Shown here piece by piece: positions 58,340 to 62,311 of a DNA stretch of 64,000 bases (position 1 is the stretch's first letter; the number at the start of each line of letters is the position of its first letter). The notes beneath the pieces are model-generated. The model saw nothing but the letters and a program-made list of their open reading frames with translations. It was not told the DNA's origin and did no database searches. The stretch comes from Octopus vulgaris. Lineage: Eukaryota. The stretch spans positions 97,154,001-97,218,000 of the forward strand of contig OX597818.1 in NCBI GenBank assembly GCA_951406725.2, read 5' to 3'. The translations under genes and the position numbers were made by a program.

Positions 58340-59249
58340 GTAAGTAATACAAAATGAGGAACTATCTATATTAGAAAGAAAAGTAGGCTAGGTGTAGCTG
58401 TGTGACAAGAAGTTTGTTTCCCAACCACATGGTTTCGGGTTCAGTCCTACTGCGTAGTACCTCGGGCAAGCATCTACTATGTCTTTGGGTCGACCATAAT
58501 CTTGTGAATGAATTTGGTAAACTGAAACTGTGTGGAAGTCATCGTATATACATATATGTGTGTGTGTTTTTGTGTTTGCTCTCAAGCCATCGCTTGACAA
58601 CCGTGTTGGCTTGTATACATCCCCGTAACTTAGTGGATCGCCTAGGAGATCGGTAGGAACAGTATCAGACTTTAAAAAATTAGTCAAACCCTTGAATAAA
58701 CCAGTCAAGGGTTTGACTAAACCTTTGAGGGGCTTAGTCAAATAAATTTAGTCGATTTGCTTGACTAAACTCCTCTTGACTGAAACAAGTGAAAGATAAA
58801 AGAAAAAGAAAAAAAAAGCGGTTTTCAAAGCATTCATTTAAATTAAGCATTTCATTTTTATTTATTTTAATTTAATTTACTTTTTCTTTTTAAATAAACG
58901 TTGACTTGTGAAAATGCTCTTCCTCTATTTTACCTTTCACCTAAAATTTAATTTTTTATAAATTGAGGTTCTTATAATTTCTCCGCATATCTTTCGACCT
59001 GTATGATATTTGTGAAAACAAGCAATTTAAATACTAACATCTCTTTTAACTACAAAAATTAATTTCTCAGAGATTACTTAAAATATAAAACGTAGAATTT
59101 TTTTAATCAGTTGGACCCATTAATATAATTTTACTCAAATGCTCTAATAGACCAAGAAGTCGGAAAGAATCCCTGTTATGACAAATGTAGCTAAGAATAT
59201 ACTACACTTCTAAGAATTGTATGAAATTTGTTGGGGTCATGACTAGTAA

Positions 59250-60064
59250 TACAAGGTGGCATCAAAAGGTTCCCGGACTTATTTACCTAAGTTTTAACAT
59301 TATCTCCTTCGAATTAATCATCTTGCGCAGCAATACACCGGTCCCAGCGATTCTGCTACTTTTGAAATCCGGCCTGGAAGTCGTTTTCCGTAAGCGAGTC
59401 GAGGACCTTCTGCGATTCACCCTGGATCTCAACAACAGTGCTGAAACGGTGACCTTTGAGCTGCATTTTCATCGTTGGAAAGAGATGGAAGTCCACGGGC
59501 GCTAAATCTGGCGAATAGAGTGGGTGTCGAGGCGATACCATGTTGTTTTTGGCGAAAAACTCACGAGTGAGGAGAGAATCGGCAGAGAATCTAATTCTTC
59601 GTGTTCCACAAACGCTTCAAAACGTTGCAGTAGAACTCTTGATTAACGGTCTGGCTCTGAGACATGAATTCTCGATGCACAAAACCACATTTCTGTGGAT
59701 GACGCTTGTGACAGGTCCTCCAGATAGCTCATCGCCTTCCAGGGACGTTCTTCCGCTTTTAAAGCGCCCGTGCCACCCGAAACATTGCGTACCACCCATT
59801 GCCTCATCGCCGTAAGCTTGCCGAAGCATGCTCAATGTCTCTGTAGCAGATTTCCCAAGTTTAACACAAAATTTCATGTTGGATCTTTATTCCTGTCCAT
59901 GACAAAATCGCAACTACAGTATACATATGATCACAAACATACAAATATCACAACTTGCGAAGTAAACACAGCGATGTCACTCGGCACACTATCTCATGAA
60001 GGTCACTGCTAGCTCTCTCACTGCGCACGTAACCATGTGTTGCTGTCTGCTGACGCGCTACAGA
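59250..60064 (-). mobile_element. Internally deleted mariner element
   Basis: MKFCVKLGKSATETLSMLRQAYGDEAM and HPLYSPDLAPVDFHLFP, with a TIR remnant tacaaggtggcatcaaaaggttccc at the left end. Confidence 0.9.
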
Positions 60065-60231
60065 ACTAGTCATGACCCCAACAAACTTCATACAATTCTT
60101 AGAAGGGTAGTATATTCTTAGCTACATCAGTTGTAACATGGACTCTTTCCGTCTTCTTGCTCTATTAGAGCATTTGAGTAAAATTATATTAATGTGTCCA
60201 ACTGATTAAAAAAATTCTGTTTATTTATTTA

Positions 60232-60317
60232 TGCAGCTGAGGATAGCCTTGCATTTAAATTGGTGTAATGATTGGTTTGTTCAATTAAATGGAGCCGCTT
60301 GAAGCGGTCGTACTGCA
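60232..60317 (+). ncRNA. Type I hammerhead motif with long stem II (GAAA changed to GAAG, decayed)
   Basis: ugcag-CUGAGGA-u-agc...cauuuaa/uuaaaug...gcu-u-GAAG-cggucg-UA^cugca. Same family as the half motif at 36.2 kb, which retains GAAACGAUCGUA. Confidence 0.7.
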
Positions 60318-60379
60318 CCACCTCTTGATATCTTGTTGCTTATATATATATATATATATATATATATATATATATATAT

Positions 60380-60541
60380 ACATAAGGGACTAAAGCCATC
60401 TGAATATGGCTAGGGACAGGGCAGGGTGGTGGGGGTGTTACTGTTGCATTTAGCCCCAGGCGAACATCGACGTCACCAGAAAGGCTCGACACCGTCACGG
60501 TGCCCTAAACCTGCAAAGGGAGGTAATTCCCCGATGAAGCG
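60380..60541 (-). repeat. Inverted partial copy of the 359-bp unit
   Basis: Reverse complement of the unit segment cgcttcatcggggaatt...agtcccttatgt, joined directly to the array. Confidence 0.9.
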
Positions 60542-60758
60542 TAAATGCAACAGTAACACCCCCACCACCCTGCCCTGTCCCTAGCCATATTCAGATGGCT
60601 TTAGTCCCTTATGTTATCGAGCAGTTACTGTCTATATCCCTTTTAGAGAATTATTATTGCTTTCGAACAGATTTTCGAAATCAGCAAATGTATTTTGCTT
60701 GAAAATCTATATAAGAAATCCTGCATAGTGAGAATTCGTCGAGGAAGCGGAGGCCTAC

Positions 60759-60804
60759 CACACGCCGATGATAGGCAATACACCTTGAAACCATGGTCCG
60801 TGTG
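60759..60804 (+). ncRNA. Type I hammerhead ribozyme motif, array copy 1
   Basis: cacacg-CCGAUGA-u-agg(caauaca)ccu-u-GAAA-ccaugg-UC^cgugug. Stem I has 6 bp plus an extension, stem III is the palindrome ACCAUGGU, and the GUC triplet predicts a cut after 60798. The core has U4C. Confidence 0.8.
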
Positions 60805-61117
60805 TGGTTTCCGCTTCATCGGGGAATTACCTCCCTTTGCAGGTTTAGGGCACCGTGACGGTGTCGAGCCTTTCTGGTGACGTCGATGTTCGCCTGGGGC
60901 TAAATGCAACAGTAACACCCCCACCACCCTGCCCTGTCCCTAGCCATATTCAGATGGCTTTAGTCCCTTATGTTATCGAGCAGTTACTGTCTATATCCCT
61001 TTTAGAGAATTATTATTGCTTTCGAACAGATTTTCGAAATCAGCAAATGTATTTTGCTTGAAAATCTATATAAGAAATCCTGCATAGTGAGAATTCGTCG
61101 AGGAAGCGGAGGTCTAC

Positions 61118-61163
61118 CACACGCCGATGATAGGCAATACACCTTGAAACCATGGTCCGTGTG
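61118..61163 (+). ncRNA. Type I hammerhead ribozyme motif, array copy 2
   Basis: Same motif as 60759-60804, offset by 359 bp. Confidence 0.8.
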
Positions 61164-61476
61164 TGGTTTCCGCTTCATCGGGGAATTACCTCCCTTTGCA
61201 GGTTTAGGGCACCGTGACGGTGTCGAGCCTTTCTGGTGACGTCGATGTTCGCCTGGGGCTAAATGCAACAGTAACACCCCCACCACCCTGCCCTGTCCCT
61301 AGCCATATTCAGATGGCTTTAGTCCCTTATGTTATCGAGCAGTTACTGTCTATATCCCTTTTAGAGAATTATTATTGCTTTCGAACAGATTTTCGAAATC
61401 AGCAAATGTATTTTGCTTGAAAATCTATATAAGAAATCCTGCATAGTGAGAATTCGTCGAGGAAGCGGAGGCCTAC

Positions 61477-61522
61477 CACACGCCGATGATAGGCAATACA
61501 CCTTGAAACCATGGTCCGTGTG
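61477..61522 (+). ncRNA. Type I hammerhead ribozyme motif, array copy 3
   Basis: Same motif, offset by 718 bp. Confidence 0.8.
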
Positions 61523-61835
61523 TGGTTTCCGCTTCATCGGGGAATTACCTCCCTTTGCAGGTTTAGGGCACCGTGACGGTGTCGAGCCTTTCTGGTGACG
61601 TCGATGTTCGCCTGGGGCTAAATGCAACAGTAACACCCCCACCACCCTGCCCTGTCCCTAGCCATATTCAGATGGCTTTAGTCCCTTATGTTATCGAGCA
61701 GTTACTGTCTATATCCCTTTTAGAGAATTATTATTGCTTTCGAACAGATTTTCGAAATCAGCAAATGTATTTTGCTTGAAAATCTATATAAGAAATCCTG
61801 CATAGTGAGAATTCGTCGAGGAAGCGGAGGCCTAC

Positions 61836-61881
61836 CACACGCCGATGATAGGCAATACACCTTGAAACCATGGTCCGTGTG
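61836..61881 (+). ncRNA. Type I hammerhead ribozyme motif, array copy 4
   Basis: Same motif, offset by 1077 bp. Confidence 0.8.
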
Positions 61882-62311
61882 TGGTTTCCGCTTCATCGGG
61901 GAATTACCTCCCTTTGCAGGTTTAGGGCACCGTGACGGTGTCGAGCCTTTCTGGTGACGTCGATGTTCGCCTGGGGCTAAATGCAACAGTAACACCCCCA
62001 CCACCCTGCCCTGTCCCTAGCCATATTCAGATGGCTTTAGTCCCTTATGTTATCGAGCAGTTACTGTCTATATCCCTTTTAGAGAATTATTATTGCTATA
62101 TATATATATATATATATATATATATATATATATATATATAGAGAGAGAGAGAGAGAGAGAGAGAGAGAGAGAGAGAGAGAGAGAGAGAGAGAGAGAGAGA
62201 GATAGATAGATAGATAGATAAGTAGGTAGTAGATGTGTGTGTGTGTGTGTGTTTTATCCCCCGTTGTGGACGTGAATTACTAAATATTACTGTCCTTTTG
62301 TTTTCCTTCAG

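Follow-up and report, generated by a model that had tools for sequence, protein, structure and literature searches.

Architecture of the tetraspanin intron and its insertion

We analyzed a 64,000-nucleotide stretch of Octopus vulgaris DNA (hereafter the window), in which a tetraspanin gene on the forward strand carries a tandem array of hammerhead-bearing repeats within one of its introns. The features of the locus are as follows.

48101..48277, + strand: upstream coding exon of the tetraspanin gene (tblastn with orthologue P0001, residues 1-59, 86% identity)
58273..58339, + strand: tetraspanin exon A (acceptor before 58273, ATG at 58280, GT donor at 58340)
58340..62311, + strand: host intron, GT...AG, 3,972 nt (AG acceptor at 62311; exon junctions in RNA runs)
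59081..60230, remnant on − strand: older element, a 166-bp inverted repeat (91%) around a broken transposase remnant, which we take to be mariner-like
60231..60318, + strand: fifth motif, a type I hammerhead of an older repeat family (core at 60237, site after 60312)
60341..60384, no strand: (TA)n target, left flank (sequence repeat analysis)
60380..60545, − strand: inverted, 5'-truncated arm without a ribozyme, 166 nt (unit positions 267-359 plus 1-73)
60542..62097, + strand: forward arm, made up of 4.3 units of 359 bp, with the long tail (unit position 120) at its end
60744..60817, + strand: hammerhead 1 (core CCGAUGA at 60765-60771, predicted site after 60798)
61103..61176, + strand: hammerhead 2 (core at 61124, predicted site after 61157; C>T at 61113 in distal stem I)
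61462..61535, + strand: hammerhead 3 (core at 61483, predicted site after 61516)
61821..61894, + strand: hammerhead 4 (core at 61842, predicted site after 61875)
62097..62140, no strand: (TA)n target, right flank, then (GA)n (sequence repeat analysis)
62312..62575, + strand: tetraspanin exon B (Pfam Tetraspanin match; spliced in RNA runs)

Searching with the tetraspanin orthologue by tblastn returned eight exon-like matches, one of them the upstream exon and five beyond the window, so that exons A and B are not the gene's only two coding exons, as an earlier note on this DNA had described them. That note had named a lack of splicing between the two exons as grounds for refutation, and the result is the opposite: contigs from four of four probable RNA runs, which come from other individuals possibly without the insertion and from which rare forms are lost, contain the junction. 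In all four, the last 30 bases of exon A appear as a loose end joined to 62312 and exon A is the sole partner joined to exon B; orthologous proteins likewise read through this junction. Of the sequencing runs matched in a run search, none is registered as RNA. Because the exons are spliced together, host transcription of an insertion-bearing allele must cross the array on the ribozyme strand, as follows from the anatomy of the gene.

The array itself has a period of 359, with 99% matches across its 4.3 copies, and the inverted arm at 60380-60545, 99% complementary to each forward unit, belongs to the same insertion. A doubled unit has stops in all six frames and thus no coding capacity; the longest frames in one array of the family reach 98-125 aa, a six-frame check found no RT/GIY-YIG frame in the 359-bp unit, and a 781-aa Penelope-like protein had no tblastn match in the window. 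The array represents a single insertion from a young, non-autonomous family of Penelope type.

Folding of 60380-60980 is predicted to be dominated by the inverted-arm duplex, and a 166-bp duplex between this arm and the array is predicted in the pre-mRNA. The array also contains repeated pyrimidine-rich AG sites and GTGAG donors, and an effect on the host could be imagined to run through the duplex or through such cryptic splice sites instead of cleavage. Against this, the four runs, which speak to the exon B acceptor only, contain no array sequence spliced to exon B, and we consider such an effect very improbable.

The earlier note had counted five sense hammerheads here, of which the four in the array stand. 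The fifth is part of a different family that is older than the array family and unrelated to it, and its core is damaged: A15.1 is changed to G, so that the window copy reads GAAG where 28 of the 29 other copies examined read GAAA, and its cleavage triplet is GUA instead of the GUC that had been ascribed to the sites. From its sequence, this motif is likely dead.

Core, fold and predicted speed of the array hammerheads

The four array hammerheads lie on the gene strand within the tetraspanin intron, as previously described, and each 359-bp unit carries one type I motif, so that more than the minimum of two consecutive units bear a ribozyme. All four cores are CCGAUGA (U4C) and not CUGAUGA, departing from the canonical CUGANGA, and we therefore file the array as a variant non-LTR retrozyme. 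Searches requiring CUGANGA, and Rfam, miss U4C, which is the most abundant of three sister lineages; an Rfam scan of the whole window at the gathering threshold returned no match, nor did a ribozyme search of phage DNA.

All four motifs have a U.U at positions 10.1-11.1, and their helix III is a 2-bp palindrome that is retained through ACCAUGGU, ACCUAGGU and ACUCGAGU. We aligned 11 natural sequences (8 of them distinct) from the three lineages; the rows are related. Pairing is kept in every one of the 144 cells, and two-sided changes occur at 5 of 18 pairs, a number that is not significant against shuffles (112/500). Covariation thus lends support to the hammerhead fold without amounting to a formal test. 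In the minimum-energy fold of two units, the two palindromes pair and the stems I cross (z −5.2), while the active double fold, considering secondary structure only, has a computed share of 1e-4 here relative to 3.5e-2 at one canonical sister locus. The ribozyme would be built to act solely as a double hammerhead of neighboring units, joined via the palindromic helix III.

Given U4C, the U.U at the base of helix II and a competing hairpin of 3 bp involving C4, the ribozyme is predicted to be slow. U4C is reported to lower hammerhead activity considerably in vitro, the variant being much slower, although the activity that remains in vivo reportedly suffices for viroids to be infectious (PMC3088659). 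A Penelope-like protein is also able to assist its own ribozyme (PMC11167929). For both reasons the predicted slowness may not hold inside cells.

Genome-wide copies and proposed mobilization of the family

We found the array family dispersed over at least 194 loci, counted by tail junctions. Its copies are ~99.5% identical to one another, with 100% identity over 201 nt to copies on other chromosomes, and by these sequence comparisons the family is young and recently multiplied. Insertions are mostly two-armed, with tails outward, in (TA)n. An inverted arm adjoins at 73 of the 88 loci examined and ends at unit position 76 in 60 of these 73; overall, arm 3' ends are fixed at unit positions 120 and 76 and 5' ends are variable. 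Two non-microsatellite loci, L037 and L039, show duplicated short flanks when read by eye.

We consider it probable that the array arose by a single recent insertion. The element concerned has no coding capacity and consists of tandem 359-bp units that each bear a U4C hammerhead; it was likely brought in through copying by a Penelope-like RT and likely sits in the tetraspanin intron as a passenger. In the proposed mechanism, a Penelope-like RT/GIY-YIG protein would act in trans to nick AT-rich DNA, and reverse transcription would start at two internal sites 44 nt apart, giving rise to the two insertion 3' ends. The tail, the inverted 5'-truncated copy and the AT-rich target of a Penelope-mobilized non-autonomous element are all present, and the genome contains an intact 781-aa RT plus GIY-YIG element in near-identical copies, which likewise ends in (TA)n. 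The unit had no homology to the ends or terminal repeats of this element or of the 50 GIY-YIG loci examined from 6,136 candidates; the mobilizer is therefore one that we infer. Of 111 family loci, 4 gave tblastn matches to fragments of the 781-aa protein, none of them demonstrably within an array, and 12 loci of the family at 8371 yielded no linked Penelope frame. Three candidate autonomous partners were rejected: the GIY-YIG match at L129 lies 1.9 kb away from a C3U array but belongs to a truncated insertion of its own; the match at L144 is an older retrozyme remnant; and no coding sequence adjoins the array at L043.

These properties resemble those of two known systems. Non-LTR retrozymes of animals (PMC7229834; 10.64898/2026.07.22.740005) also consist of non-coding tandem units of ~350 bp with one type I hammerhead each and a short palindromic helix III; the 359-bp unit, in 4.3 copies, falls within their range of ~150-400 bp, and axolotl HHR_Amex2 shares the U.U at the base of helix II (PMC7229834). 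The octopus core differs in being fixed for U4C, with a sister lineage fixed for C3U, and the forward-arm GC of 46.8% is marginally above the '<45%' given as a descriptive trait. While octopus insertions are two-armed, tails-out and placed in (TA)n, the text of PMC7229834 contains neither 'inverted' nor 'microsatellite'. Also absent from that text are 'octopus' and 'cephalopod', and a search of mainly open-access literature on octopus hammerheads, U4C and C3U found no description of the family, though motif lists in the supplements of PMC4209133 and PMC7229834 could include cephalopods. Endonuclease-positive Penelope-like elements (PMC11167929, PMC4209133, PMC8557442) share tandem and inverted 5'-truncated copies, a dimer-type hammerhead, AT-rich or (TA)n targets and an optional tail of 30-40 bp, compared with 44 nt here. 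In contrast to the autonomous members, the octopus unit lacks an RT or GIY-YIG frame.

We examined whether arm 5' ends retain a trace of cleavage. A sharp pile-up at the cleavage site was rejected, with 4 of 161 ends within 255-262 against 3.6 expected and, after cleaning to 130 arms at 68 of the 88 loci, 3 against 2.5 expected. In the cleaned set, more 5' ends than expected fell within the 84 nt immediately 3' of the site (258-341; 71/130, expected share 0.24), and so did those in later cycles (21/78, P = 0.04). This excess could stem from cleavage of some templates; length bias toward short arms or stalling at GC-rich structure could equally produce it.

The missing pile-up is among the observations that would be explained if the U4C-lineage ribozyme were dead, uncleaved passenger RNA spreading with a fold that is a leftover or a protein-binding structure. 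U4 occurs in 0 of 221 core motifs across the 88 loci, the exact CCGAUGA motif has 806 genome copies against 0 with U4, and ribozyme mutants left insertion by a Penelope-like protein unchanged in vitro (PMC11167929). However, 217 of the 221 motifs preserve both the palindrome and the rest of the core, and CCGAUGA is also the main form of a second, unrelated family (79 by hand count among the first 100 of 338 entries listed), pointing to a tolerated variant more than to a single chance loss. We thus regard a dead ribozyme as unlikely and favor a slow one that takes part in copying.

The C3U core is probably weaker than the canonical one; we found no published source on the activity of C3U alone. 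Amongst the 130 arms, 73 contain at least one whole ribozyme and 39 at least two, and arms with at least two make up 4/92 in the canonical, 14/79 in the C3U and 39/73 in the U4C lineage. This trend fits slower cleavage letting multimers be copied, though age or founder effects may also account for it. We tentatively suggest that weaker ribozymes are favored, uncleaved multimers yielding long arrays that are tolerated in sense introns, and that hammerhead strength might set array length in Penelope-type retrotransposition, with the second family having reached U4C independently and the lineages serving as a natural experiment. At stake is the role of the hammerhead in Penelope-like elements and animal retrozymes, which three sister lineages with different cores and array lengths and a stereotyped two-armed insertion make testable with natural sequences.

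Consequences for the tetraspanin gene

The earlier note had proposed that co-transcriptional cleavage could compete with splicing and affect tetraspanin output, with unit-length RNAs released. In its strong form, sense ribozymes would cut the nascent intron often enough to lower output, and the locus would release unit-length RNAs or circles. Orientation and position are as that proposal described, and four units provide three adjacent pairs able to form a double hammerhead. Dimers are also the more efficiently cleaving form of axolotl retrozymes whose helix II carries U.U (PMC7229834). According to PMC10919898, moreover, the intronic Cpeb3 ribozyme modulates its own mRNA. Timing and core argue otherwise, as all four motifs carry U4C and ~1.15 kb separate the first dimer site from the acceptor, a distance that transcription at the mammalian rate quoted in PMC10919898 covers in ~20 s, whereas even ordinary-core mussel retrozymes run at ~0.1 per minute (PMC7229834). 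The array does end 214 nt before the acceptor, as noted previously, while its last cleavage site is 436 nt away, and proximity to the acceptor leaves less, not more, time for cleavage ahead of exon synthesis. In the four runs the exon B acceptor showed the normal splice and no other. Sense orientation is itself expected by chance: 33 of the 56 ribozyme-bearing loci (88 examined) have ribozymes on both strands, and a sense-strand ribozyme is therefore expected in ~80% of such insertions. We consider cleavage that alters host output improbable.

Although transcription through the ribozyme strand holds, the suggestion of an arrangement that is special or likely to tune the gene is not supported, given the many young copies and their expected orientation. 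Host read-through would yield a multimeric precursor, most of which would be spliced out before cleavage, so that any tetraspanin effect would be small and incidental. Ribozyme regulation of tetraspanin is unlikely because of the U4C core, the young high-copy family, the chance sense orientation and the older, damaged state of the fifth motif. As their non-standard core is predicted to be slow, the four hammerheads likely serve the repeat's own copying and not host-gene control.

In Xenopus, intronic retrozyme copies are common (42-44%) and 1 of 9 dimers cleaved (10.64898/2026.07.22.740005), and slow intronic ribozymes without a splicing effect have been described (Fong 2009, as cited in PMC10919898). 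The same paper describes the mammalian Cpeb3 HDV-like ribozyme, which resembles the array as a self-cleaving motif on the sense intron strand upstream of an exon, at 9.9 kb from the acceptor compared with 0.4-1.5 kb here. Cpeb3 and amniote intronic hammerheads are described as conserved, whereas the octopus copy is very young, mobile and high-copy with a variant core, and its identical copies on other chromosomes distinguish it from a single, evolutionarily conserved motif. The tetraspanin locus shows no sign of being special and is a usable test case for intronic copies.

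The array-bearing intron and its gene

The array sits between two exons of a tetraspanin gene that lies only partly in the window.

58273-58339 (+): tetraspanin exon A, on the 5' side of the array-bearing intron
60237 (core): fifth hammerhead motif, sole copy in the intron, of another family than the array
60542-62097 (+): array, 359-bp unit × 4.3 (tandem-repeat period)
62312-62575 (+): tetraspanin exon B, with a Pfam Tetraspanin match

The intron is 3,972 nt long with GT-AG ends. Exon B matches tetraspanin-6 of Octopus bimaculoides at 94% and of Argonauta hians at 84%, and both proteins cross the A-B junction uninterrupted. 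We aligned runs from other individuals (X1, X2, X3 and X13; four studies, RNA type being the tool's guess) to 62256-62610. Contigs of all four began at 62312 with a loose end equal to the final 30 bases of exon A; the exons, as the earlier note had supposed, are thus joined in 4/4 probable RNA runs. Exon B had no other upstream partner in these contigs, in which rare forms are lost and whose source individuals may be without the insertion. Eight exon-like matches (tblastn) extend from 48101 to ~9 kb beyond the window, so the intron is internal: the two exons do flank it, but they are not the whole coding set. At 62397, three organism A runs carry C and the organism B run carries A, as does the window, so the runs differ from one another in allele or species.

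Other features of the gene region were a short degenerate copy of the exon B end, followed by GT, just downstream of the exon (62718-62750); an inverted repeat of 220 nt in the upstream intron (56066-56728), 96% complementary and with 223 nt between its arms; and, in the array's own intron, a broken transposase remnant, presumably mariner-like, inside a 166-bp inverted repeat (59290-59900, -).

Hammerhead motifs and the U4C core

Every full unit carries, on the strand of the gene, a motif shaped like a type I hammerhead, bearing out the earlier placement of four array motifs on the transcribed strand, and the four full units show one base difference in all. Stem I has a proximal 6 bp, an internal loop and a long distal part; helix II is U.U then 3 bp, followed by GAAA; helix III is 2 bp with a palindromic loop, followed by GUC. 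The core is CCGAUGA, that is, U4C. The genome holds 806 exact matches to a 31-nt U4C pattern, 417 on the forward and 389 on the reverse strand, while its U4 version and a reversed control gave 0 matches each. Excerpts of Perreault 2011 (PMC3088659) report that U4C considerably lowers activity in vitro while viroid infectivity is retained, and that U.U is the mismatch best tolerated at 10.1-11.1.

Two adjacent units are predicted to fold into a double-hammerhead scaffold with palindromes paired and stems I crossed (z -5.2), in which a 3-bp hairpin involving C4 occupies the core; Cervera 2014 (PMC4209133) gives a dimer model for type I hammerheads of metazoans. In the computation, the active double fold took a share of 1e-4 for two array units versus 3.5e-2 for one canonical sister locus. 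Because the computation takes no account of tertiary contacts, and a canonical locus (L092, 1e-5) fell to roughly the level of the C3U loci in the single-ribozyme fold, these shares are weak evidence.

The fifth motif's family (2,276 candidates, best copies ~92% identical) combines a stem I of 6 bp with CUGAGGA and a long helix II; GAAA follows, helix III is self-complementary and the site is GUA. GAAA is present in 28/29 other copies examined; the window copy has GAAG, which abolishes A15.1, and is likely dead. Two further hammerhead-like motifs lie in the window.

8361-8427 (+): motif of a second CCGAUGA family, unrelated to the array
28567-28489 (-): canonical CUGAUGA motif with long helix II and palindromic helix III

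The first has a palindromic helix III, a GUA site and an end near (TA)n. Its family gave 338 genome pattern matches, mostly C4 (79 CC, 15 CU and 6 other cores by hand count in the first 100 listed of the 338 matches).

Integration and array length

The tail end and TA junction pattern recurs at no fewer than 194 loci, that is, at least 194, in the genome. We examined 88 loci (80 from among the first 100 matches listed, 7 others and the window). Forward arms end at unit position 120, the tail by which sampled loci were chosen; an adjoining inverted arm is present in 73/88, and 60 of these 73 end at unit position 76. On contig C1, 10/18 loci carry ribozymes on both strands, with tails outward in all 10. 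Copies have a median pairwise identity of 99.5%, computed on the first 25 of 47 stretches. Of 130 arms, 73 were copied through one or more entire ribozymes. At 17/70 clean-junction loci (L146-L225), both arms break off at one unit position to within 12 nt, a hint that integration may include folding back. Elsewhere in the window lie a 120-nt tail-end remnant of the family, 90% identical and flanked by TA runs (5885-6004, +), and an interstitial telomere-like (AACCCT)n tract (37458-37595).

Penelope-like elements are marked by a short tail, by copies that are inverted and 5'-truncated, and by targets in microsatellites (Craig 2021, PMC8557442), and the family has all three. In Frangieh 2024 (PMC11167929), the tail is explained by two internal reverse-transcription starts; the ribozyme was assisted by the protein, and insertion in vitro did not require it. 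An intact, young element of the Penelope-like type is present in the genome.

L128 681-5526, on contig G000:C5 near 1.04 Mb; also L126-L143: autonomous Penelope-like element, ~4.8 kb, intact 781-aa RT + GIY-YIG frame

The 781-aa frame is intact in 16/20 loci fetched, with copies 91-99.5% identical. The element has terminal repeats, (TA)n ends and a CxxCxxC linker, a Neptune-like trait as labelled in part of PMC8557442. A relaxed scan of it for canonical hammerheads gave no match, it has no detectable sequence in common with the 359-bp unit, and the unit's parent was not found among 50 GIY-YIG loci.

Except for its core, the array element fits the non-LTR retrozymes described in excerpts of Cervera and de la Pena 2020 (PMC7229834) and those of Li 2026 (bioRxiv 10.64898/2026.07.22.740005). 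Judged by its sequence, the array is a non-LTR retrozyme of octopus whose integration is of Penelope type and whose core is fixed as U4C. This kind of element is already known; we found no description of a U4C octopus retrozyme in the literature searched.

Two sister lineages share its stems: C3U (UUGAUGA, 95 exact copies, with 92-95% identity between its units and the array unit) and canonical (CUGAUGA, 96 copies, ~353-bp unit, most of which aligns with the array unit). Between lineages the palindromes of helix III and the distal parts of stem I vary in sequence while pairing is kept, evidence in favour of selection on the hammerhead as a dimer. Arms with at least two ribozymes number 4/92 in canonical, 14/79 in C3U and 39/73 in U4C, the last sample being tail-selected; on contig C1, 17/28 U4C arms have at least two, with up to 15 per arm. 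The U4C-C3U difference gives a Fisher p of 4e-6, a value that exaggerates the difference since insertions are not independent. A dimer-only ribozyme would cut any transcript with two copies, so only weak variants would hand long multimers to the reverse transcriptase; on a simple reading, weak cleavage would let these be copied into longer arms. Against this, the second CCGAUGA family has no same-strand tandem copies among the matches listed. Lineage age may instead underlie the differences: the canonical lineage is older (95.7% identity versus 99% for C3U; small samples, overlapping loci included), and exact patterns miss diverged neighbours and so undercount ribozymes per arm, although blastn also found short arms in 11 canonical loci. 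A single long founder array could explain U4C arm lengths, and circular templates would also yield read-through arms.

Sense orientation and the host gene

The earlier note proposed that cleavage could compete with splicing and affect tetraspanin output. Judged from arm length, both arms hold an entire ribozyme at 33 of the 88 loci, a single arm does at 23 and neither does at 32, so under random orientation ~80% of ribozyme-bearing insertions, (33 + 11.5)/56, would place one on the host sense strand by chance. Xenopus retrozyme copies are 42-44% intronic, with some depletion once normalised (Li 2026, bioRxiv 10.64898/2026.07.22.740005). The array's cleavage sites lie 1,513, 1,154, 795 and 436 nt upstream of the acceptor. 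At mammalian elongation rates (3.5-4.1 kb per minute, from excerpts of PMC10919898), exon B is reached ~20 s after the first possible dimer, and later in a cold-water animal; mussel retrozyme cleavage runs at ~0.1 per minute (from part of PMC7229834), so timing counts against regulation by cleavage. Slow intronic ribozymes reportedly had no effect on splicing (Fong 2009, as cited in excerpts of PMC10919898). The observation behind the proposal was mostly right, but we consider it quite unlikely that the array regulates tetraspanin output by cleavage. A small effect on the host gene may nevertheless occur, because splicing may lag by minutes.
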